The notes under the pieces are model-generated. The model saw only the letters and a program-made list of their open reading frames with translations. It was not told where the DNA came from and searched no databases. Shown piece after piece: positions 50,277 through 61,839 of a stretch of DNA of 64,000 nt (its first letter is position 1; every line of letters starts with the position of its first letter). A program made the translations under genes and the position numbers. This stretch comes from Sphingobacteriia bacterium (GTDB lineage: Bacteria; Bacteroidota; Bacteroidia; Chitinophagales; Chitinophagaceae). The DNA is taken from positions 25,810 to 89,809 of the forward strand of contig JBAXUV010000010.1 in the NCBI GenBank assembly GCA_037129425.1. The letters run 5' to 3'.

Positions 50277-52769
50277 ATGCTTAAGAAATTTACGCATTAT
50301 CTAGGGCTAACAATACTTATTCTAGTTTCCACCAATTCAATTGGTCAATACCAATACTTAGGCACTTATGATAATGAGGGAAGACCTAATTATTTATTGC
50401 CAACTAGAGATGTGCTTAGTGCATCATTCTTAAGTAAGATTGCCGCTTCTTTACCGGAGAGCAGACCTGTACCTACTTATAACCCTCGATTAATTGCAGA
50501 TGGTAGAACCGAAACCATTGATGTGAAATGTCCATCGGATGTATGGATCACTTTTGTTGATGAAGGTGCTGGCTATAGAAATGGATTAGGATATTATACT
50601 TTCAATACCGACAATCCTCCTACTACACCACCTGCTGCAAATCAAATCAAAATTATTTTCCCCAATGCATCTAAAAGTGGAGCTGGTGGCGGATTAACTG
50701 CAGGTGATAAAGTATTCTTAGGTAATTTTCCTGCAAAAACAGGTATTGGATTTGTATTGATGGCTGATGGTTGGAATGGTTCAATTGTTACTCCAGGAAA
50801 CTGGGTATTATACTCTACTTCAGCTTTTAATCCAGAACCAATTGTTTCCAATAAAAAACATACTGTTTTACTAAGAGATTCTAGTACCAATAGAATTGTT
50901 GTTGGTTTTGAAGATATTAGAAGAGATAACAATAGCTGTGATAATGATTTTAATGATTTGATATTTTATACTACAGTTACACCAATTGAATGCGTCAACA
51001 AAATGGATAGCATTCCCGATTTAACACTTGATGGAAAAATTTCATTCTCAGGAAATACTGGTGGACTAGAAAGTAAAAGCCTGGGAGACAAAATTGCTAA
51101 AAGAATTTATGGAAAATTATTAGAAGGCAGCAACGGTGAAGTGAATTATCAAAATATGCAATTGCTCGAAACATCTTCTAGGATGGTCACTAGCAATGCA
51201 ACTTCTTCTGCTACTGGCTTGAAATTGGCAGACTTAATGCCATCTCGCATATTAGATCCAGGATACACAGCATACATCACTACTCCAACAGATATACCAT
51301 CTATTACAAACGCTAAAGAAGTAAGGTCTGTTGACTTTACAAAAGATGGCATATGTAAAGCAGTGGCTTTTGCAACCAAAACACAGGGTGTAATGTATGA
51401 TCACACTAAGCCAATGTGTGATCGATTAAAAGGAGCAGAATTATTGAACGTAGAGAATTTTTCTTTAAACAGTTTAAATTTTGTCAGATACACATTAAAA
51501 CAGTCTACTGGAAATATTGAATATGCAATGAGTTTTTCAATAGGTAAAAAAACTGGAAGGAATAATTTCTCATTTCAATCTAACTGGTTGAATAAGGATT
51601 ATGTAAGTGAAGACACATTAATTAACTACCAGGTTTGGGCAGCAGCTCCGTATTTATGCATTGATATGGCTTTAGAAATTTTAAGCAAATTGAATGCTAT
51701 AATGCCTGTTCAGCAGTTTGTGGCATCAGCAGAATTACCTAAAACATATATTACCAGTGGAAGTCGTAACGGAACCAATTTAAATTTAACCATCAATAAT
51801 CAAAGCATCTTTAGTAGTGGATATTTTGAAGTTGAAGAGAAAGCCAATGAAAGAGCTACTATAAAAACAAAAAGAACAGTTCCGTTTAATTTAAATGCAT
51901 TCAATAAATCAACTATCAGTTTCCCAATGAGTGATGTTTTTGAGAGCAATGTTTCGATGTATATCAACGGTAAATTACAGGATCAGGTTTATATGAGTGA
52001 TGGCACCTGGGGTATTGATTATGACTCTACTAAAACAGTAGTAAAAGAGTTTAACATAATAAATGATACTGCAAAAGGTTTTGCTGCAGGAGACTATCCT
52101 GTATTCAGAAATGTCAAAATCAATGCAACAACAACTAATTATGTTACCGCTTACAAAGTCTTAAAGGGAGCAGGTGTGGCCGTAGATTTGAGTGAATATA
52201 AAACATTGGTATTAACAGCTAAAGGAGATGCAAGACTAAAAATTACATTGGCCAAAAACTCCATTAACGATTTTGAAAAACAATTTAAATACAGCACCAC
52301 TGTAGGAAAAGAATTCAAAGAGTACAGAATAGATTTGAGTAGTTTCAAATCAACGAATTCAACCACAGGTTTTGTTGCAAACGATATTGTTACTGTTGTA
52401 TTTGCTTTTGAAACTTTTGACGGAAGATCAACTACAATTGATGCTGCCATCAATAATATTGCATTCTCTAAAAAAGCGCCTGAAGAACCTGCTGCTGCCA
52501 TCAATACATCTATCAATGTATTTCCTAATCCAGCAAAAGGTGGAAAATTCACCGCCAAATTCAACAGTGAAGTAAATACTACCGCAACCATTAAAGTAAC
52601 AGATGCAACAAGCGGTAGAGTGTTGTTCACCAAAGATGCCAATGTAGTGAAAGGGGAAAATCAGGTTCCGGTTCAAATGACCAATTTACCAGGAATATCT
52701 ATCAGCATTCTAACCATTGAGGGAAATGGCATCAAGCTTCAGCCACAGAAAATATATGTTCAGCAATAA
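50277..52769 (+). CDS. T9SS cargo protein: DUF4114-like head + conserved ~570-aa module + T9SS CTD
   Basis: 830 aa with a signal peptide. A DUF4114-like block (GAGYRNGLGYYTF ... GFEDIRRDNNSCDNDFNDLIFY) spans about 50514-50982. C-terminal CTD: VFPNPAKGGKFTAKF...ILTIEGNG. Confidence 0.85.
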   Translation: MLKKFTHYLGLTILILVSTNSIGQYQYLGTYDNEGRPNYLLPTRDVLSASFLSKIAASLPESRPVPTYNPRLIADGRTETIDVKCPSDVWITFVDEGAGYRNGLGYYTFNTDNPPTTPPAANQIKIIFPNASKSGAGGGLTAGDKVFLGNFPAKTGIGFVLMADGWNGSIVTPGNWVLYSTSAFNPEPIVSNKKHTVLLRDSSTNRIVVGFEDIRRDNNSCDNDFNDLIFYTTVTPIECVNKMDSIPDLTLDGKISFSGNTGGLESKSLGDKIAKRIYGKLLEGSNGEVNYQNMQLLETSSRMVTSNATSSATGLKLADLMPSRILDPGYTAYITTPTDIPSITNAKEVRSVDFTKDGICKAVAFATKTQGVMYDHTKPMCDRLKGAELLNVENFSLNSLNFVRYTLKQSTGNIEYAMSFSIGKKTGRNNFSFQSNWLNKDYVSEDTLINYQVWAAAPYLCIDMALEILSKLNAIMPVQQFVASAELPKTYITSGSRNGTNLNLTINNQSIFSSGYFEVEEKANERATIKTKRTVPFNLNAFNKSTISFPMSDVFESNVSMYINGKLQDQVYMSDGTWGIDYDSTKTVVKEFNIINDTAKGFAAGDYPVFRNVKINATTTNYVTAYKVLKGAGVAVDLSEYKTLVLTAKGDARLKITLAKNSINDFEKQFKYSTTVGKEFKEYRIDLSSFKSTNSTTGFVANDIVTVVFAFETFDGRSTTIDAAINNIAFSKKAPEEPAAAINTSINVFPNPAKGGKFTAKFNSEVNTTATIKVTDATSGRVLFTKDANVVKGENQVPVQMTNLPGISISILTIEGNGIKLQPQKIYVQQ
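51060..52769 (+). repeat. paralogous protein module, copy 1 (GGLESKSLGD ... T9SS CTD)
   Basis: By eye it aligns over its full length with 60121-61839, roughly half the residues identical. An example block is [16 protein letters not shown]....QSNWLNKDY. Confidence 0.8.
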
Positions 52770-52792: not shown

Positions 52793-52818
52793 AGCCTCCA
52801 GCAATGGGGGCTTTTTTA
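52793..52818 (+). terminator. intrinsic terminator after the 830-aa gene
   Basis: Stem agcctcc (52793-52799) with gggggct (52806-52812, one G-U pair), followed by a T6 run. Confidence 0.55.
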
Positions 52819-53454
52819 TACATTAAATTCAATCATGAATTTTACCAAAGCAGCAGGAGAATTTAATTGTAATTTATGCATGATATTTTTACGATGTGTT
52901 TCAACCGTATAAATACTCAAGTGTAGCTTTTCTGCTATTTGTTGATTGGTATAAGTTTGCTTTAAGTAATAAACAATTTCTAATTCCCTCTTTGTGAGGT
53001 TGAATTTGTGCAAGAAAGTATCTAATTTTTTGAAAGCATCTGGCAGGTTTTCTTCTTTCCCCAAAATAAATACAGACTCACCTGCTGCTACTTTTTTAAT
53101 GGCACCAGATAACTCATCTTTGCTACTATTCTTTAGTATATATCCGTCAGCACCAGCTTTTTTAGCTTGTTCAATTAGTTTTGCATCATTGTAGGCAGAT
53201 AGCATTAGTACCCTAACAGTAACAAAGGATTGTTTGATGTATTTGATGGTGTCTAAGCCATTTAAGTTGGGCATATTCACATCTAATAAAATCAAATCGA
53301 TATCAGGTTGTTGAGTAAGTAAGTAAAGTAACTGCTTACCATCATTAGCAATGCCTGCAATATTAATTGCTGGATCATTTCCCAATATCATCTTTAGACC
53401 TTCCACAAAAAGTGGATGATCGTCCGCAATCATTAAGTTAATTTTCTCGCTCAT
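52816..53454 (-). CDS. NarL/LuxR-family response regulator (REC + HTH)
   Basis: 212 aa. Receiver motifs are ADDHPLF, DLILLDVNMP (phospho-Asp context) and LSAY. C-terminal LuxR HTH: LTKRELEIVYYLKQTYTNQQIAEKLHLSIYTVETHRKNIMHKL. Confidence 0.9.
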   Translation of the reverse strand: MSEKINLMIADDHPLFVEGLKMILGNDPAINIAGIANDGKQLLYLLTQQPDIDLILLDVNMPNLNGLDTIKYIKQSFVTVRVLMLSAYNDAKLIEQAKKAGADGYILKNSSKDELSGAIKKVAAGESVFILGKEENLPDAFKKLDTFLHKFNLTKRELEIVYYLKQTYTNQQIAEKLHLSIYTVETHRKNIMHKLQLNSPAALVKFMIEFNV

Positions 53455-53473
53455 AAATAAAATTCAATATACA

Positions 53474-55261
53474 TCATTTTTTGAAAGGAACAAACATTGG
53501 TCCTGCAAAACAAGGGTAAGACTTAATTTTATAGATCCCGCCCTCATAATAGGTTTCAGCCCAACAATATTTGGAACCAGGAGTATCGTCATTCTTCATT
53601 TGAGGAACATACCAAAGTACCAGATCTGTATTAACAATTTGCTCTGGATTAGGTTCAATGAATTTTTCGGGGCCCTGTCTGTAATCGCTATTGCAACATG
53701 GACCAATCGTTACCAAATCAGTTTCTCCTTCATTTTTATCTAAATGGTTTTTTGTAATGTATAAATATGCATTATCTCCCCTACCACTGTCATTAAACTG
53801 ACCCTTGCCTGGCTCTATATAAAATCCATTGTTGGCACTTGTTTGGAGTTGATACTGAAAACCCTTGGGCGAATAAGCAGTAGTTGGTTGTTGTAGCTGC
53901 CATTTTTCTTTTTCCCAAATATTCCAATCATTATTGCCCCATTCATAAAAGGATTGTTTATTCCCTGCAAATGAAATACGCATCACAGGCCGGTAAATTC
54001 CATTGTTTCCACATCCCCTACCTAAGCTAGCACAAACCATTCTGAACTGTCCATTTTTGTAAAAGAAAAAACGCTGGGAATAACTATAATTGCAGGCAAT
54101 GGGCCATAATTCACTGAAGAATCGCTGCTCGAGCATAAAACCAACTGTACTGTCTCCTTCAATAATATCAGCTATAATAGGCGGATCTGTTGCTACAACA
54201 GCCGATTGACTAAAGATTGGACAACCAACTGCATCACTGTATCCAAACCCATCCGTACCGGAATAACTTACATGCCAATCTACCAATTTAGCACTATTGA
54301 TTATTTTGTTTGAATTGAAACTGACATTACTGATCATGAGTCCATCAGAGGCTGTTAAAACATAATCAACAGACCAGTTATTTTTTTTAACGGTGTTGAT
54401 TTTTTCGCAGTAACAATCAGCCATATTTTCATTCTGTAATTTTCTTTCTGTAACCACTAAGTTTTCTGCATCCTTTCCAACATTGGTCCAACGTAACCCT
54501 ACCAGTCGATTTTCTGTAAGGTCTACAATTGCCCATAGTGCTCTATTGCCTTTTACAAAAGTTGGTGCAACGCATAAATGCTGAGACCTTTCACATTTTG
54601 TTCGGTTCAATGCTGTTTTGGTACTCGACATGATGGGCATATCTGCTGAAGGCTTAAACCCGAGTGCCTTCTCTACTTCAGGAGAATTAACCGCAATTTT
54701 TACAGCCAATTTGGTAAGTCTCGAAGGAATATCTGGTTGCATTTGAGGATAATGATCTACACTGATCATTTTATGCGTAATAATATTGACCACACCAATC
54801 GTTGTTAAATTCAACGCATAATTATACATTTCAATACGCAATAATGAACCTGGTAAATTCACTACTCCTTTTCTGATATCACCAGGTCTTGCAGGATAGA
54901 CTCCAAATATTTCGTTCCATAATGGTTGATGCGTTTTTCTATCAAAAATATATTTGGTAAAAAAACTGTCTTGCAAAGCAATATTTTGAGCCAACATGGT
55001 CCTTTCATCAGTTTTATCGGAATAGTATTTTACGGGAATATCATCATGCAATATGGAGTCGATTTGTTTTTTTCTTTGAACAATAAAACTGGCAGTATCT
55101 GGTTTTTTGGTCGAAAATAAAGATTCCTTGAACTCGCTCAAATATATAGCATCATTGGTTTTGGCGGCTTTTGAGCTGGCTTTTTTTTGTTGTGCATTTA
55201 AGCCAAGTGAGCTCATTAATAACACCAATATGATACAAGAATTTTTTATTTGTACAATCAT
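53474..55261 (-). CDS. exported copper-amine-oxidase-like protein lacking the copper His triad
   Basis: 595 aa with signal peptide ..LLMSSLGLNAQ. By-eye alignment to the CuAO catalytic domain: CNYSYSQRFFFYKNGQFRMVCASLG vs AGAO [25 protein letters not shown]. Also TDLVLWYVPQMKN vs QDIVVWHTFGLTH, and an N3-like ..NRALWAIVDLTENRLVGL. There is no H-x-H anywhere in the protein. Confidence 0.6.
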   Translation of the reverse strand: MIVQIKNSCIILVLLMSSLGLNAQQKKASSKAAKTNDAIYLSEFKESLFSTKKPDTASFIVQRKKQIDSILHDDIPVKYYSDKTDERTMLAQNIALQDSFFTKYIFDRKTHQPLWNEIFGVYPARPGDIRKGVVNLPGSLLRIEMYNYALNLTTIGVVNIITHKMISVDHYPQMQPDIPSRLTKLAVKIAVNSPEVEKALGFKPSADMPIMSSTKTALNRTKCERSQHLCVAPTFVKGNRALWAIVDLTENRLVGLRWTNVGKDAENLVVTERKLQNENMADCYCEKINTVKKNNWSVDYVLTASDGLMISNVSFNSNKIINSAKLVDWHVSYSGTDGFGYSDAVGCPIFSQSAVVATDPPIIADIIEGDSTVGFMLEQRFFSELWPIACNYSYSQRFFFYKNGQFRMVCASLGRGCGNNGIYRPVMRISFAGNKQSFYEWGNNDWNIWEKEKWQLQQPTTAYSPKGFQYQLQTSANNGFYIEPGKGQFNDSGRGDNAYLYITKNHLDKNEGETDLVTIGPCCNSDYRQGPEKFIEPNPEQIVNTDLVLWYVPQMKNDDTPGSKYCWAETYYEGGIYKIKSYPCFAGPMFVPFKK

Positions 55262-55263
55262 TC

Positions 55264-56322
55264 TTATTTATTGAAAGGATTCATGAATTGTTTATTTCTT
55301 AAATAGCTTGTATCGGTTAAAGCAGCCAAAAACTCAATTAATTCTATTTGCTCTTTCTCTGATAAACTAAAACCATTTATTAAAGCAGATTTATTTTTAT
55401 TGCTTCTCCCATCGCCTTTATTTTCTTTGGCTTCAATTAATCTACCTCCTCTTTTATAAATATAAATCATTTGCTGGATTGTTTCAACAGAGCCATCATG
55501 CGCATAAGGTGCTGTAATGAGTACGTTCCTTAATGAGGGCACTCTAAACTTTCCTCTATCGTTGGTGTTTTTGGTAATTTCGTACAAGCCTTGATCTGAG
55601 GCTGGGTAAGACCCAAGATCATCCAAATTGTATAACCCAGTATTTTCGTACAATAATTGTTGTTGAGCAACATTCAAGGAATGACATTTAAAACATCCTA
55701 ACTTTTCCGAATTAAATAGCGCCAGCCCATTGATCGCTTTTTCATTCATCGCTTTTTTATTCCCCTTTAAATATTGATCATAAGGGCTATTCTGAGATTG
55801 TATTTGATTTTCAAAAGCAGCAATTGCTTCCTGGAAAAAAACGGTTGAAAAAGGATTTTTTTCCTTTGGAAATGCCTTATTGAAAAGGGTTTGGTAAAAA
55901 GGATCCGATTTAAAGCGATTAATAATCTCTATTTCATTATTGGTCCAACCCAGTTCTTTTGGGTGTTCATTAAATAGGGGGAAAACCATTTGTTGTGCAA
56001 ACGTATGTATAGAACTATCTCCCCATGTAAGGGCTTTTAAATATTTGGCATTTAAAATGGAAGGGGCATTCCTGCGTAGATTTTCTCCATCAGCTCCAAC
56101 AGATTTTCTATACCCATCTGAAAATGCAAATTGAGGGTCATGACAAGAGGCACATGACTTTGTTTGATTGTAAGACAATTTATTATCAAAAAATAAATGC
56201 CTGCCTAAATTGATTTTGGAATCTGAAGAATTATTAATCGGAGAAGAAAACAATTGATCAATAAAGAAGGAAGAAAAAATAATCAGCACTAAAAAAAATA
56301 ATATGCGCCATTGCTTTTTCAT
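55264..56322 (-). CDS. di-haem cytochrome c peroxidase / MauG family enzyme
   Basis: 352 aa with an N-terminal anchor/signal. CASCH is encoded at 56140-56154 and CFKCH at 55681-55695. FRVPSLRNVLITAPYAHDGS is the family signature. Confidence 0.9.
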   Translation of the reverse strand: MKKQWRILFFLVLIIFSSFFIDQLFSSPINNSSDSKINLGRHLFFDNKLSYNQTKSCASCHDPQFAFSDGYRKSVGADGENLRRNAPSILNAKYLKALTWGDSSIHTFAQQMVFPLFNEHPKELGWTNNEIEIINRFKSDPFYQTLFNKAFPKEKNPFSTVFFQEAIAAFENQIQSQNSPYDQYLKGNKKAMNEKAINGLALFNSEKLGCFKCHSLNVAQQQLLYENTGLYNLDDLGSYPASDQGLYEITKNTNDRGKFRVPSLRNVLITAPYAHDGSVETIQQMIYIYKRGGRLIEAKENKGDGRSNKNKSALINGFSLSEKEQIELIEFLAALTDTSYLRNKQFMNPFNK

Positions 56323-56326
56323 AGCC

Positions 56327-57319
56327 TTATTTGAAGTCGATCAAGTCCCAGTTTTTTGATGCAGTATTCCACTTAAAAGTATATTGTGTTTCTGGTTTTT
56401 CACTTGAAGCTTGTAAGTTATAATTAAATGCAACACCACTAATAATTAAAGCTCCATCTACCATTTTTATTTTTCTAGCTTTATCATCACCTCTAGGCCC
56501 AAACCCTTCGAGGCTAAGCTCTTTACGCAATTTAGACTTTACTAATTGGCCTTGAGCATTGATTGGAATAGAAATAATATTTCCGTTTCTTGCACTTCCT
56601 ATATACAATCGTTTTTGTTTATTTTCATCGAAGGCCACATTAAGACCAATTGCATCTTTTTTTGAAAAAGAATCTATGATTTTTTGGGTGTTTGGATTGA
56701 TCAAAAAAATGATTCCTTTTTCTTGATAACGATCAGAACCAGCTACAGTAGAAGCAATCAAAATATTAGCAGTGCAATCGTATGTGATGCCCAATAAACC
56801 AAAAGGATTTTGAGAAGATGCTTTTGAATTAACTGGGAGATTTAACCATTCACTCAATACACCTGTATACTGATCCAATCGATAGATTGTATTTAATTTA
56901 TCTATTGGATTATACAACATGGAAATTAAAGGAGTTGGAATGGTATACGCATTGCCATTGATATCAAAAGCAATGGAAGAAAGATAGCCGAATGATTTCC
57001 AAGAAGGAGCCTGATACAATGATTTTTTGGGATTGGTTGGAGAAGGTGATTTTTGGCCTTCTAGCTTTTCAAATTCAATTAATGCGATTCCAGTGTACTT
57101 TTTTTCACTGGTACTCAAAGCAGTCCACAATGGATCAAATCCTAAAGTTTTGATGAAGTCTGGTTCTTTTTGGCAGGGCTTAATGGCAGTTTGGGCTACC
57201 AAGTTGTTGGGTATTATGAAAAAACACAAAAAATTAATACTGACACTTGCAAATAAATTAACATATGTTCGAAGTCTTGACAACTTTTTATATGAAATTT
57301 TATTTGAATATATATTCAT
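56327..57319 (-). CDS. hypothetical exported protein, beta-propeller-like repeats
   Basis: The track ORF starts at a TTG (57340); an ATG lies at 57319. It has a hydrophobic anchor (LFASVSINFLCFFIIPNNLVAQ). Repeated short beta-strand blocks (e.g. ANILIASTVAG, KGIIFLINP, RLYIGSARNGNIISIP, GALIISGVAF) suggest a propeller or NHL-like fold. Confidence 0.6.
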   Translation of the reverse strand: MNIYSNKISYKKLSRLRTYVNLFASVSINFLCFFIIPNNLVAQTAIKPCQKEPDFIKTLGFDPLWTALSTSEKKYTGIALIEFEKLEGQKSPSPTNPKKSLYQAPSWKSFGYLSSIAFDINGNAYTIPTPLISMLYNPIDKLNTIYRLDQYTGVLSEWLNLPVNSKASSQNPFGLLGITYDCTANILIASTVAGSDRYQEKGIIFLINPNTQKIIDSFSKKDAIGLNVAFDENKQKRLYIGSARNGNIISIPINAQGQLVKSKLRKELSLEGFGPRGDDKARKIKMVDGALIISGVAFNYNLQASSEKPETQYTFKWNTASKNWDLIDFK

Positions 57320-57564
57320 TTGCTTTATAATGTGAAACAAGTAAATTTAAAATAAATATTGAAACCCATAGGTAAAAATACTTGAATTTAGCTAAAAGGC
57401 TCCAATTAAACATACAATTTAGTTTGTATATGTATAGCTCTGAAAGGATTCTACAATATGGAATTCCAGATTCTATCAAATGGAAAACAGTAAATTTTAC
57501 AATAAAAATGTGTAATTTTACGTCGGATGTAGAAGATAAACTACAAGAAATGTTTTTTTGTTTA

Positions 57565-57576
57565 CACAATATTGTG
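57565..57576. promoter_or_regulatory. perfect 12-bp palindrome CACAATATTGTG in the divergent control region
   Basis: It lies 58-69 nt upstream of the ATG at 57634 and about 245 nt upstream of the operon start. Confidence 0.3.
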
Positions 57577-57633
57577 GAAAAAAAACGTTCCCGTGAGTTT
57601 TTACGCACATGGTTTTATTTTAAATGTACTGTT

Positions 57634-60600
57634 ATGAAAAAAATTTACTCAACTATTTTTAATGCAAAAAAATCATTTGGCATTTCCATTGCCTTATGTG
57701 TTTTTGCTTTAAGTTCTTTAAACCTTTCTGCTCAAGTGAGTGGAAATGTATTTAGAGATTATAATGCTACCGGAATAAAAGAATCAGGTAGCGGTTACAA
57801 TGAACCTAACGTTCCAGGTATTACTGTTAAAGCATATAATGCTGCAGGAACAGTCCTTGCCACCACTACAACTGGCGCTAATGGAAATTATAGTTTTACA
57901 GCTGGTCAAATTCCAGCAGCAACTAAAGTTCGTTTAGAATTTACTGGTTGGATGTCAGAAGACTATCCTGGAGCTTATGGTACCGATAATAAAACAAGTG
58001 TTCAATTTGTTACAGCTCCAAATAACACTGCCAATTTTGCGATTAATTATCCTGGAGATTATGTGGACGCACCTAATGCAAGAATTATTGTTCCATCGTA
58101 TACCAATGGTAATAACCAAATTCCTGGTGCTTGGCCAGCAGCATCCGGTGCAGATAATACCTACGCTTTTAATTATGGAAGTGGTGCAGCCGCTAATATA
58201 ATTAGTGATATGGGACAAATTGGATCTGTTTGGGCTACAGCATATAGTAGAAAAGCAGACAAATTATTCTATGCAGCTTTTGTAAAAAGACATGTATCGC
58301 TAGGACCTCTTGGCATGAATGGAATCTATGTTACTACAGGAGCTAAAGCAATAACTACCAAGACCAACACTGGTAACTTCGTTAATCTAAATGCGATCAA
58401 TCCAGCATTTGATGCAGGTTCTTTACCTGGTAGATCTTTTTCTCCTGGTAACCAATTTAGAAATCAGGCCAATAGGGATGATATGACTGGTGGCAATGTG
58501 TTTGACGAAGTAGGTAAAAAAGGTATTGGCGGAATGACTATTTCAGATGATGGAAGATATTTGTATATCATCAATTTGAATGATCGCAAATTATGGAGAG
58601 TAGATATTGGTGTTAATGGAACTGCTCCCACTTTAGCTTCTCAAATTGTAGCATATAATGCATTTCCTGTAGTGGCTGGAAACAGCACATTCAGACCATT
58701 TGCAGTTAAATTTTATAGAGGAGCTATTTATGTTGGTGGTGTATTAGATGGAGTAAAACCTGATAACTCTTCGGTGAATAGAAGTGAATTGAAAGCGGTT
58801 GTATTAAAAGTGAGTGCTACTGTAACACCAGGCTCAGAAACTTTTACAACTGTATTGGATGCTCCACTTACTTATCAGCGTAGGGCAAATATAAATACTG
58901 GATTTGGAGTAAATAAAAATACCAATTATACTGATCCTAATGGAACGATTGCTGCTGCCACACTATGCCAAGGTTCATGGCATCCATGGGCTAGAAATTT
59001 TTCTGAAGTAGTTATTCCTCCAGGATCTGATAAAATTATTTACCCTCAACCTATGTTGAGCTCTTTGGATTTTGACCCTGCAGATGGATCAATGATATTG
59101 GGAATCACTGATAGAACTGGTCATCAGGCTGGAAACCAAAATTTAGGACCAACTAGTATCGGAAATAATACTTTGTATACTTCTAATTCCGCTGGTGATA
59201 TCTTGAAAGCAGCCAACAATGGTACTTATTCCAGTTTTACATTAGAAAGTAATGGAACAAATGGAGCTTATACTACAAGCGGTGCTGGTAACAATGAAGG
59301 ACCTGGTGGTGGTGAGTTTTTCTATACAGATCGTTATGAAAATGGAGTAGGTGGTGCTTTGGGAATTGGAAATACAGCCAATGGATCTAACCCAGGTACT
59401 TCTCATGAAGAAACCAGTACTGGTAGTATTGCTATGTTCCCAGGTAAAGAATTAATAGCCACTGCATTTGACCCGATTGATAACTGGTTTACAGGTGGTG
59501 TTCGCTATTATTCTTCTACAGATGGTATTGCTAAAGATGGTAAAGTATTGTACTTAGGTGCAAGTGTAGAATATTTTGGTAAAGCAAATGGTTTAGGTGA
59601 TTTAGAAATTATTTCTGCACCAGCACCAATTGAAATCGGTAACCGTGTTTGGTTCGATGCAAATGCCAATGGTGTTCAGGATGCCGATGAAAATGGAATT
59701 GCTGGTGTTACTGTTCAATTAACTTCTAATACTCCTCCATATAGTCCATCTTTATATACAGTTATTGCAACTGCAGTTACTGATGCGAATGGAAATTATA
59801 TTTTCTCTTCGGATGCAAGTAAAACTTCAACTGGTTCAGAGAAATATGGTATTGCTCAGTTCACAGACCCTATCAATAATTTTAGGGTTCAAATACCAAA
59901 CCTTCCTGGAAGCACAACTGTTCAAGCTCCATTGGTTGGATATGATGTTACCTTAAAAGATAATGGAGGTGCCGATGCTAACGCAGATGAAAGAGACAAT
60001 GATGCCAATGCTTGGAATGAATTTGGTACTAATAATATTGCGGTAATTTATTTCACTACAGGCGGAATTGCTGGTGCTAACAACCATAGCTACGATTTTG
60101 GATTTGCAACAGCAGGTTCAGTTGGTGGTGGTGGAGGTGGTGGTGTTGAAAGCAAGAGCTTAGGCGACGCAATTGCCCTTCGTGTATATAACAAAGCAAT
60201 CAACAGTATTGCAGAAAAGGCAGATTATAGCAAAATGCCTTCGGCAGAAAGAACAGGAAATATTGTTAGCAATGCAACTGGAACTCAGTTGAAATTAACT
60301 GATATTTTACCTCGTCAATTAGCCAACTATAATTTTAAATCTTTTGTATCAACACCTAAAGATTTAATTGGTATTACCAATGCAAAAGATGTATTATCAA
60401 TTGACTTTGTAAACGAGAATACACCAAAAGCGGTTGCATTTGGTACACAAACTCAAGGTGAAGTATATGATCATACCAAGGCAATTTGTGATCGTTTGAA
60501 AGGATATGAATTGGTAGGAATGCAAAATGTTACAGTTAAAGGGATCAACATGGTTCAATATAACCTAAGAAACAATGATGGTAATATTGAATATGCAATG

Positions 60601-61839
60601 AGCTTTATCATAGGCGCCAAAACAGGAAGAAATAGTTATACCATTCAATCAAATTGGTTGAATAAAGATTATACTGTTGATGAAACCATGTACAATATTC
60701 AACTTTGGGGTGGTTCTCCTGTTCTTGCTACAGATATGGCAGCTGATATCATTACTCGCTTAACTGCTGGTTTACCAGTGAATGAAATCAAAAGCAATGC
60801 TGGTTTACCAAAAACATATATTACTGCTGGTAAACGTGTAGAAGACAACCTTTCATTGACTATTAATAATGTTACTTCTGCAACTAGTGGCTATTTTGAA
60901 GTATCAGATAGAGCAACTGAAAACACTACTGTATATACGAAGCGTACTGTTCCATTTACAGTAAATGGTAATGGCAAAACAACTATAGCTCTCCCAACCG
61001 GAGACTTATATGAGTCTACCATCAAATTGTATATGAATGGAGTTATTCAAGATGAAGTATTCATGGCTGATGGATCTTGGGGTGTTGATTATAATACCAA
61101 TACAACAAGTGTTAAGAAATTTGAAGTAAAGAATAGTACAGCACAATTAGCAAAAGATGAATTCCATCTTTTCAGAAATGTAGATGTGAATGCAACTACA
61201 CCTGACTTAATTGGAGTATACAAATTATTAAGAGGTGGTGGAGCTCCACAAGATTTAAGTGCATTCAAAACATTGAAAATTACTGCAGCTGGTAATTCAG
61301 TATTAACAGTTACTTTGGTAAAACAATCTATTACCAATTGGGCTGATCAATATACTTATCAGTTCTCAGTGAATAAGGATGCAACTGATTTCTTAATCCC
61401 ATTGACCGACTTTAAATCTTCAGGATCTAATAAACCAATTGATCCAAAAGATATCACCACTATGATTGTTGCATTAGGAACTACTTCTGCAGGAAAAAAT
61501 GCCAATGTTGAAGTTTCATTAAGCAATGTTTCATTTACTAAAGAAGATATAGGCTATATCAGAAGTTTATCTGCAAAAGATGTTACTGCATATCCTAATC
61601 CATCTAAAGGAACATTTAACCTTAAGTTTAAAGCAGATAAAGATTATGCGCTTACTTTAAAAGTTACAGAAGCTGGAACAGGCAATGTAATAATGAGTCA
61701 AGCAATAAATGCTACAAAAGGTGAAAACTCTGTACCGGTGAATTTAAACATCAACAAAGGTCAAAAAATGTACATCATTAGTCTTGATGGAAGCAATGTA
61801 AAATACAAAGCGACCAAATTGGTAATGGGTAAGGATTAA
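57634..61839 (+). CDS. T9SS cargo protein: SdrD-B-like repeats + large central domain + conserved ~570-aa module + T9SS CTD
   Basis: The track ORF starts at 57382, but the ATG at 57634 gives a signal peptide ([34 protein letters not shown]). SdrD B-like blocks: [20 protein letters not shown] and [41 protein letters not shown]: [14 protein letters not shown]... Confidence 0.85.
60121..61839 (+). repeat. paralogous protein module, copy 2 (Gly7 linker, [10 protein letters not shown] ... T9SS CTD)
   Basis: Collinear with 51060-52769 and in the same orientation. Confidence 0.8.

Follow-up and report, generated by a model that had tools for sequence, protein, structure and literature searches.

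The gene for a copper amine oxidase-like (CAO-like) protein of 595 residues, with an ATG start, was found on the minus strand at 53474..55261 of the window, a 64,000-nucleotide stretch of contig JBAXUV010000010.1 of Sphingobacteriia bacterium (GCA_037129425.1). Upstream on the same strand, across a gap of 2 bp, lies the gene for a 352-residue MbnH-family (MauG-type) di-haem enzyme (55264..56322). Another 4 bp separate this from the preceding gene, for a 337-residue beta-propeller protein, PROP (56327..57340, minus strand), whose true start is probably M8, position 57319. The gene for a LuxR/NarL-type response regulator with Response_reg and GerE domains (52816..53454, minus strand) follows the CAO-like gene after 19 bp. 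The PROP, di-haem and CAO-like genes form a tight operon. Scanning revealed no terminator-like site on the minus strand, and scans for sigma-70 promoters and terminators gave no useful information. A giant surface protein with an SdrD_B domain and a T9SS-type C-terminus is divergently transcribed (57382..61839, plus strand). Searches of NCBIfam and the PDB gave no function for it, and its homologues are found beside most Chitinophagia copies of the module, rearranged loci among them.

The CAO-like protein carries a predicted signal peptide at residues 1-23 (MIVQIKNSCIILVLLMSSLGLNA, followed by QQ; 55193..55261, minus strand), with the cleavage site placed by eye on the translation. The structural model has a helix at residues 2-22 followed by a disordered linker (23-53), and the protein is predicted to be exported. 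Its seven histidines are at positions 72, 111, 163, 170, 228, 330 and 506, and of its 13 cysteines one, C9, is located in the signal peptide, leaving 12 in the mature form, among them C390, C410, C417 and C522-C523. A recount of the translation agreed with the original prediction on the seven histidines, the lack of an H-x-H, H506 as the sole histidine after the N-Y-S-Y motif, the 12 mature cysteines and the position of C390-N-Y-S-Y394 at 54080-54094.

The CAO-like protein spans domains D2-D3-D4 of the copper amine oxidase (CuAO) fold and is a true remote homologue of these enzymes over D2-D4, as the original prediction of a CuAO-like fold had proposed. Alignment of the CAO-like family with nine real CuAOs by hhalign gave a probability of 98.9% and an E-value of 2.6e-17 over 484 columns (query 60-594), and the best 50 Foldseek matches listed for the model in the PDB were all CuAOs (E about 1e-15), with a global TM of only about 0.3. 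The Pfam domain PF01179 scored 21.9 bits, below its cut-off of 27, and NF008559 scored 21.7 bits against a cut-off of 651. Neither phmmer with the protein nor hmmsearch with the family profile recovered a CuAO from the PDB sequences, so the kinship is visible only by profile-profile and fold comparison. The relatives constitute a large, uncharacterised family; the CAO-like family was not found in the literature on MbnH or MauG in connection with amine oxidase or topaquinone, nor in that on 6E1C.

Conservation was counted in 81 diverse CAO-like relatives, down to about 28% identity. In the hhalign mapping, N391, Y392, S393 and Y394 of the C390-N391-Y392-S393-Y394 stretch (54080..54094, minus strand) align with N465, TPQ466, D467 and Y468 of E. 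coli amine oxidase (ECAO), which places Y392 at the TPQ-precursor position. Compared with the TPQ consensus N-Y-(D/E)-Y, the first, second and fourth residues are in register and the third is serine. Y392 is kept in 79, Y394 in 78 and C390 in 78 of the 81 relatives. Residue 393 is R, N, S, Y or F across the family, with E in one of the 40 site patterns listed. Composition alone predicts about 0.1 occurrences of N-Y-x-Y in a chain of 595 residues; the motif stands out from chance because it falls in the TPQ register of a significant profile-profile alignment and is nearly invariant across the family. The loop Y333-C347 (YSGTDGFGYSDAVGC; 54221..54265, minus strand) is modelled with a pLDDT below 50 at residues 333-345. 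It holds Y333 (80/81), which aligns with ECAO Y369, the tyrosine that hydrogen-bonds to O4 of TPQ, as well as D343 (79/81), C347 (81/81) and D337 (27/81). The catalytic base had been proposed to be a retained aspartate, D336. Residue 336 is a threonine, the aspartate of SGTDGF being D337, and this position is aspartate in only 27 relatives and a gap in 23. The CuAO base itself (ECAO D383, AGAO D298) falls in an hhalign gap, alongside neither D337 nor D343. The proposal of this aspartate as the base is not supported by these counts.

None of the three copper-ligand histidines of CuAOs, the H-x-H and the C-terminal histidine, is present. The H-x-H strand is replaced by Y423-R-P-V-M-R428 (53978..53995, minus strand), as judged by conservation and hhalign, and Y423 (79/81), R424 (74/81), P425 (73/81) and R428 (79/81) are well kept. 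The CuAO H-x-H falls in an hhalign gap adjoining this strand, and re-alignment of segment 384-436 to the CuAO H-x-H region gave no unique replacement for H524 and H526; if R428-I-S is anchored on the CuAO R-L-D, Y423 would take the second-histidine position. The earlier equation of IYRPVMRISF with the H-x-H region is accordingly plausible in location and ambiguous in the hhalign alignment. The third position fared better: N557 (53591..53593, minus strand) is paired with ECAO H689, just as had been suggested, and is N in 45 and T in 24 of the 81 relatives and histidine in none. The reported absence of copper histidines extends to the entire family, and no member has a histidine in the 417-431 strand. 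H228 and H330 are the only conserved histidines, and none lies C-terminal to Y392. The only tyrosines conserved to at least 90% are Y333, Y392, Y394 and Y423, all in or beside the old active site. Six tryptophans are also conserved to at least 90%, including W386, six residues before Y392.

Among relatives the conserved cysteines disappear in pairs, as would be expected of disulfide partners (522/523, 390/417, 223/230 and 566/584), which makes the cysteine-linked cofactor considered in the original prediction unlikely. The cysteines behave as five disulfides in the alignment. C522 and C523 (53693..53698, minus strand), which lie in a low-confidence loop of the model (515-534), are jointly missing in seven relatives retaining every other cysteine, and this co-loss points to a probable vicinal disulfide. 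A Cys-Tyr or cysteinyl-quinone cofactor at C390 was rejected as leading idea, C390 and C417 being lost together in P0213. A predicted hairpin (strands 394-401 and 406-412) would set residue 390 opposite 416/417, which is compatible with a disulfide.

The di-haem protein scored 377.6 bits against TIGR04039, above the cut-off of 362.85, and matched PF03150 with an E-value of 2.5e-44; its orthologue at locus L001 scored 369.6 bits against TIGR04039. The best PDB match was 6e1c, annotated 'Di-heme enzyme' (E 1.1e-75), which we take to be MbnH. Against the MauG model TIGR03791 it reached 150.7 bits, far under the equivalog cut-off of 443.85. Both haem-binding motifs, C57-A-S-C-H61 (56140..56154, minus strand) and C210-F-K-C-H214 (55681..55695, minus strand), are invariant in all 79 partner di-haem proteins. 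Y289 (55456..55458, minus strand) aligns with the tyrosine of ...DIYSEGGR in 6e1c and is kept in 77 of the 79; by this alignment it is the candidate axial ligand of the six-coordinate haem and would provide the MauG-type signature. His-Tyr ligation separates MauG-type enzymes from canonical peroxidases and accompanies low haem potentials and poor peroxidase activity (PMC11892367). Three MauG-type enzymes have been characterised, of which MauG and MbnH modify adjacently encoded proteins, while the activity of BthA is not known (PMC11892367, PMC11951088, PMC3621798).

The AF2 model of PROP had a pLDDT of 87.1, and Foldseek returned only generic six- to seven-bladed propellers (YncE, PON1 and WDR91; E about 1e-5). 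No family was found for PROP in Pfam or NCBIfam. W114 and W331 are invariant. Kinship of PROP with the GSDH domain fused to Chloroflexota relatives was tried and rejected (hhalign probability 1.2%).

The gene neighbourhood is well conserved. In 65 of 70 assessable Chitinophagia genomes the CAO-like gene is immediately preceded by a di-haem gene in the same orientation; of 56 genomes assessable for PROP, 55 have it in the cluster, and the trio occurs in two different gene orders. Four Chitinophagia genomes are without an adjoining di-haem gene. The response regulator, found 22-33 bp downstream in loci of the Sediminibacterium clade and missing from the other arrangement, belongs to the cluster only in that clade. 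Four Chloroflexota loci (L093, L113, L114 and L143) have CAO-like genes beside MauG-type di-haem genes and propellers of the GSDH (PQQ sugar dehydrogenase) family; in Chloroflexota such propellers are sometimes fused to the CAO-like domain. As the di-haem partners there are of other subfamilies (TIGR03981-like and MauG/MbnH-like) and the propellers are GSDH, the Chloroflexota trio is a non-orthologous recurrence. Most loci in Chloroflexota and other remote branches have no di-haem gene within the sequenced flanks. In the trio of L124 a mono-haem cytochrome c follows the propeller and a di-haem gene is missing from the surrounding 8 kb, an arrangement as compatible with the haem protein being a redox partner as with its being a maturase. 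L119 and L120 have a tri-haem cytochrome c nearby. Surface domains of the PKD or Ig-like type occur in remote CAO-like relatives. The Chloroflexota module also has Rieske and redoxin genes upstream, which had no signal peptide by eye and were for this reason not counted as redox partners.

The CAO-like protein shares with CuAOs (PF01179; E. coli TynA/ECAO, Arthrobacter AGAO) the D2-D3-D4 fold, the predicted export, the O4-binding tyrosine and an N-Y-x-Y whose first tyrosine falls at the TPQ position. The family differs in the loss of all three copper histidines, in variable residues in place of the D/E after the TPQ tyrosine, in ten conserved cysteines that probably form five disulfides including the vicinal pair, and in being encoded together with a MauG-type di-haem enzyme. 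The classic example of a protein cofactor that arises by copper-dependent self-processing is TPQ. Canonical CuAOs generate it by autocatalysis with Cu and O2 (PMC11951088) and therefore need no MauG-type di-haem enzyme. The operon with an MbnH-family enzyme and a propeller, a context absent from the original prediction, alters the mechanistic picture.

Among known systems, MauG and pre-methylamine dehydrogenase (TTQ) likewise combine a MauG-type enzyme with an adjacently encoded periplasmic protein needing a protein-derived quinone, and their gene set includes a beta-propeller protein, as in the CAO-like operon. The heavy subunit of methylamine dehydrogenase is a propeller. Here, however, the putative target has a CuAO fold and is not a small disulfide-rich light subunit, and the candidate residues are Tyr rather than Trp; mau genes or methylamine dehydrogenase were not found in the window. 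To our knowledge, only a few targets of MauG-type enzymes are known. In the MbnH/MbnP system (TIGR04039 and TIGR04052), to which the di-haem enzyme is related as a TIGR04039 member with 6e1c as nearest solved structure, MbnP is missing here and the CAO-like protein and propeller stand in its place, in departure from the pairing rule (TIGR04052; GenProp0940) (PMC3621798). Precedents exist in LodA/GoxA (CTQ), where a quinone cofactor needs a separate, adjacently encoded maturase, LodB/GoxB, and in lysyl oxidase (LTQ), which has a Tyr-derived cross-linked quinone (PMC11951088). Their folds and type of maturase are unlike those of the CAO-like system, LodB/GoxB being a flavoprotein and LTQ being copper-dependent.

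We propose, with a probability of roughly 40%, that the CAO-like protein is a copper-independent quinoprotein with a Tyr392-centred cofactor installed by the di-haem enzyme. It would be an exported, copper-independent member of the CuAO superfamily in which the old pocket (Y392, Y394, N391 and the O4-binding Y333) appears from the alignments to be kept, with Y423/P425 (approximately) and N557 in place of the three copper histidines. Lacking copper, Tyr392 would be unable to self-process with O2. Instead, the MbnH/MauG-type enzyme would use H2O2 to reach its bis-Fe(IV) state and oxidise the pocket through long-range hole transfer, yielding a redox cofactor built from the protein itself around Y392, either similar to TPQ or with a cross-link to the nearby invariant Y423. 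Once matured, the CAO-like protein may serve in the periplasm as a quinoprotein, an oxidase or a dehydrogenase whose substrate is probably an amine, with the beta-propeller as partner. The more specific version, a Tyr-derived quinone made by a MauG-type enzyme and not by Cu, as a copper-free TPQ or a Tyr392-Tyr423 'tyrosine tyrosylquinone' (cf. TTQ) in a copper-free CuAO fold with a propeller partner, is rather unlikely. It is just as conceivable that the di-haem enzyme acts on a Trp, or on the propeller. Points against the maturase model are the residue after the tyrosine, which unlike in all CuAOs is not D/E, the remote loci and the four Chitinophagia genomes without the di-haem gene, and the position of the base aspartate in an alignment gap.

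An alternative that we consider rather doubtful is that the di-haem protein is a redox partner, removing H2O2 formed by the oxidase or taking up electrons as a cytochrome c, with the CAO-like cofactor acquired otherwise or Tyr392 used unmodified, and with the propeller performing the following step, such as aldehyde or sugar oxidation or lactone hydrolysis. The cytochromes c at L124, L119 and L120, the GSDH propellers and fusions of Chloroflexota and the lack of a di-haem gene at most remote loci agree with such a role, as does the arrangement of canonical amine oxidase genes, which adjoin that of a product dehydrogenase (tynA-feaB). The associated di-haem proteins that were tested nevertheless best match MauG-type, protein-modifying families and not canonical peroxidases. 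They also keep the signature tyrosine, a feature of haems with low potential and of weak peroxidases (PMC11892367), and a redox partner offers no route to the cofactor without copper.

Membership of the MbnH family above the curated cut-off raises a different idea, since the known MbnH chemistry converts Trp to kynurenine and gives a Cu site in MbnP (PMC11951088). The di-haem enzyme might likewise turn a Trp of the CAO-like protein or the propeller into kynurenine, or oxidise it otherwise, making a new metal (Cu) site, and the system would then serve metal handling and not amine oxidation. The six conserved tryptophans including W386, the conserved H228 and H330 and the invariant W114 and W331 of the propeller would suit this. 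It is nonetheless improbable: neither the CAO-like protein nor the propeller matches TIGR04052 at E-values up to 1, it is the tyrosines of the former TPQ pocket that are conserved most strongly, and the window around the module has no copper-transport or TonB genes. The CAO-like protein may also be a pseudo-enzyme, a structural or binding protein that has kept the CuAO fold and lost catalysis, perhaps acting with the giant surface protein. Loss of all three copper ligands and of the D/E after the tyrosine, the base aspartate left without a partner in the alignment, the PKD/Ig-like domains of remote relatives and the synteny with an adhesin-like giant protein fit this description. It is disfavoured, and we regard it as quite unlikely, because the former active-site residues are among the best conserved of the family over a wide divergence, a pattern unexpected after loss of function; the tight coupling of the module to redox proteins also speaks against it.

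The preferred reading, installation of a Tyr392-centred cofactor by the di-haem enzyme, is open to experiment, because cultured hosts of the module exist, such as Sediminibacterium salmoneum NBRC 103935 (L037). The CAO-like proteins are a large conserved family that has kept the TPQ pocket, discarded copper and become genetically tied to MauG-type enzymes. This raises two testable questions, namely whether the many orphan MauG/MbnH homologues have further targets, and whether quinone or other chemistry takes place on a CuAO scaffold without copper. If true, a Tyr quinone installed by a MauG-type enzyme would represent a new class of quinoproteins across Bacteroidota and Chloroflexota.

The open reading frame at 53474-55261 (-) was found to be real and to encode a 595-aa protein, here termed CAO-like for its relationship to copper amine oxidases (CuAOs), and the C390-N-Y-S-Y394 motif was confirmed at coding position 54080-54094. 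The protein contains seven His (72, 111, 163, 170, 228, 330 and 506) and no H-x-H, and H506 is the only His C-terminal to the motif. Of the 13 Cys, C9 is located in the signal peptide, leaving 12 in the mature protein. The catalytic base proposed in the original prediction as D336 was misnumbered; position 336 is occupied by Thr, and the Asp in SGTDGF lies one residue further on, at D337. The G+C content of the window is about 35%, and the genomes nearest to the source are Sediminibacterium and other Chitinophagaceae.

The CuAO relationship was barely visible to plain sequence methods. PF01179 matched residues 289-337 with 21.9 bits, below the gathering score of 27, and the protein is therefore outside PF01179 by family thresholds. 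The NCBIfam primary-amine oxidase model scored 21.7 (cut-off 651), and neither phmmer nor hmmsearch gave a CuAO match in PDB sequences. A profile of 81 family members was compared by hhalign with a CuAO profile of E. coli TynA (ECAO) and eight diverse plasmid-borne CuAOs. The two aligned over 484 columns with a probability of 98.9% (E 2.6e-17), query residues 60-594 corresponding to ECAO precursor residues 109-742, i.e. domains D2, D3 and D4. The AlphaFold2 model had a mean pLDDT of 73.7, with low confidence in the loops bearing D343, C417 and C522/C523. The top 50 Foldseek matches of this model in the PDB were all CuAOs (E about 1e-15, probability 1.00), with low global TM-scores of about 0.3. 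On the basis of the hhalign and Foldseek results, the fold originally assigned was right.

Residue pairs common to local and global hhalign runs were used for active-site mapping. N391, Y392, S393 and Y394 aligned with ECAO N465, TPQ466, D467 and Y468, placing Y392 at the position of the Tyr-derived cofactor TPQ, and N557 aligned with H689, the third copper ligand, both as predicted. Y333 aligned with ECAO Y369, the tyrosine that hydrogen bonds to TPQ O4. The ECAO base D383 and the H524/H526 pair fell in alignment gaps, and realignment of the segment alone left the HxH equivalents ambiguous. Anchoring on an R-[ILM]-[DS] motif (R428-I-S versus R-L-D in CuAOs) would place Y423 at the second HxH histidine; whichever register holds, the strand replacing HxH contains no histidine.

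Conservation was counted in 81 relatives, down to about 28% identity. Y392 (79/81), Y394 (78/81), C390 (78/81), Y333 (80/81) and D343 (79/81) were kept, as were the strand residues Y423 (79/81), R424 (74/81), P425 (73/81) and R428 (79/81). Position 557 was N in 45 relatives, T in 24 and never His, and position 393, D/E in CuAOs, was variable. The base suggested at D336/D337 was not conserved, being D in only 27/81 and a gap in 23/81. In the whole protein only Y333, Y392, Y394 and Y423 are tyrosines conserved at 90% or more, and only H228 and H330 stand out among histidine columns. As read from the alignments, this pattern argues that the old active-site pocket has been retained under selection after loss of the copper ligands.

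Ten Cys are conserved in the relatives (223, 230, 285, 347, 390, 417, 522, 523, 566 and 584). C522 and C523 were lost jointly in seven relatives and C566 with C584 in relative P0143. In relative P0213, C390 was lost with C417 and C223 with C230; this protein also lacks D343, and its D2/D3 region is replaced by low-complexity sequence, with Y392 and Y423 kept. In a predicted hairpin (strands 394-401 and 406-412), residue 390 faces 416/417. The simplest reading is that the conserved Cys of this exported protein would form five disulfides, including a vicinal one, which makes the Cys-linked cofactor first suggested unnecessary. The vicinal pair C522/C523 is noteworthy; in methanol dehydrogenase such a pair adjoins PQQ.

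The operon context was overlooked in the original prediction. Four minus-strand genes are separated by gaps of only 4, 2 and 19 bp: genes for a propeller protein of 337 aa (56327-57340) and a di-haem protein of 352 aa (55264-56322), then the CAO-like gene, and last a response regulator of the LuxR type (52816-53454). Against the MbnH family TIGR04039 the di-haem protein scored 377.6, above the curated cut-off of 362.85, and its best solved relative was 6e1c, 'Di-heme enzyme' (E 1.1e-75). Both CxxCH motifs are invariant among the di-haem partners, and Y289, kept in 77/79, aligns with the Tyr of the 6e1c segment IYSEGGR. The 337-aa protein gave a confident beta-propeller model (pLDDT 87.1) with generic Foldseek matches only; database homologues of 330 aa imply a start at M8 (57319). 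A GC-rich hairpin with a T-run (52793-52812), between the convergent ends of an 830-aa gene and the response-regulator gene, is likely a bidirectional terminator closing the operon. Large T9SS-type surface proteins (50277-52769 and 57382-61839, both +), for which no function was found, flank the module and have in common a 564-aa C-terminal region with 43% identity. The latter, of 1485 aa, probably starts at M85 (MKKIYSTIF, signal-peptide-like), and its homologues adjoin the module in most Chitinophagia loci despite differing gene order (L001, L063, L077, L082, L083).

Clustered at 90% identity the CAO-like family falls into at least 1538 groups, and at 50% into 274; it is present in 381 of the scanned species-representative genomes and is annotated as hypothetical in every source. 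In 80 Chitinophagia species genomes, the di-haem gene was directly upstream on the same strand at 65/70 assessable loci and downstream at one more; four genomes had no adjacent copy. The propeller was in the cluster at 55/56 assessable loci, upstream of the di-haem gene in 34 and immediately after the CAO-like gene in 21. Because the linkage survives gene-order rearrangement, it points to a functional module. Contigs L048 and L076 carry a Bacteroidota-type CAO-like gene and are labelled Synechococcus and Bifidobacterium MAGs, probably through binning contamination.

A remote branch, of about 35-40% identity, consists mostly of sequences from Chloroflexota (Anaerolineae, Ardenticatenaceae); a single relative carries the label Acidobacteriota. 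Proteins of this branch have tails of PKD or Ig-like type, or are fused to a propeller of the PQQ-type sugar dehydrogenase (GSDH, PF07995). Fusions were seen in P0170, P0408, P0425, P0447 and P0481 and at loci L095 and L144, mostly Chloroflexota where an organism is named (P0481 is labelled Acidobacteriota); at other loci one or two GSDH genes stand separately beside the CAO-like gene, a frequent arrangement (L093, L096, L102, L103, L106, L141-L143). No relation of the Bacteroidota propeller to GSDH was detectable. At L093 and L143 the CAO-like gene is followed by two GSDH genes and then a MauG-type di-haem gene; a di-haem gene is also close by at L113, L114 and L138. These remote di-haem proteins best match other MauG-type subfamilies (L143 nearest TIGR03981, L113 about equally MbnH and MauG), and the trio therefore recurs with non-orthologous parts. 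Most remote loci have no di-haem gene within the available flanks. L124 (7761-10850), from a low-GC lineage, encodes, in this order, a CAO-like lipoprotein, a propeller and a 158-aa mono-haem cytochrome c, with no di-haem gene within 8 kb; it and most remote loci argue against a universal link. Eight loci of the high-GC remote branch (L095, L098, L111, L116, L121, L139, L141, L142; the L141 and L142 organisms are Chloroflexota) have genes for a TlpA-like CxxC redoxin and a 115-aa Rieske [2Fe-2S] protein directly upstream of the CAO-like gene, both seemingly without signal peptides.

Given the observed CuAO homology, copper-ligand loss, conservation pattern, operon-like spacing and synteny, we tentatively favour (probability about 0.4) a copper-free CuAO-fold protein that would be the substrate of the adjacent MauG-type enzyme. 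This enzyme would mature the Tyr392-centred pocket, the product may be a protein-derived redox cofactor, and the mature protein would act in the periplasm with the propeller. MauG-type enzymes have weak peroxidase activity, are set apart from canonical peroxidases by His-Tyr ligation and form bis-Fe(IV); MauG and MbnH oxidize proteins, and the activity of BthA is still cryptic (PMC11892367; PMC11951088). That the haem protein is instead a redox partner or peroxidase appears rather unlikely. The usual partner of MbnH is MbnP, TIGR04052 (PMC3621798). The di-haem neighbour belongs to TIGR04039, but neither the CAO-like protein nor the propeller matched the MbnP model, and we consider it improbable that the target is a Trp, converted as in MbnP to give a metal site with kynurenine. 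A non-catalytic CAO-like protein, a reading to which the missing copper ligands lend themselves, is about equally improbable; retention of the pocket under selection argues against a decayed pseudo-enzyme.

Maturation of the CAO-like protein by its di-haem neighbour would combine known parts in a new way. Nothing on this family, or on its pairing with a di-haem enzyme, was found in the open literature. In a 2025 survey of protein-derived cofactors TPQ is formed autocatalytically, and the only MauG/MbnH targets listed are MADH and MbnP (PMC11951088). Should the cofactor turn out to be a tyrosyl quinone, either cross-linked or made by a MauG-type enzyme, its chemistry would be new.
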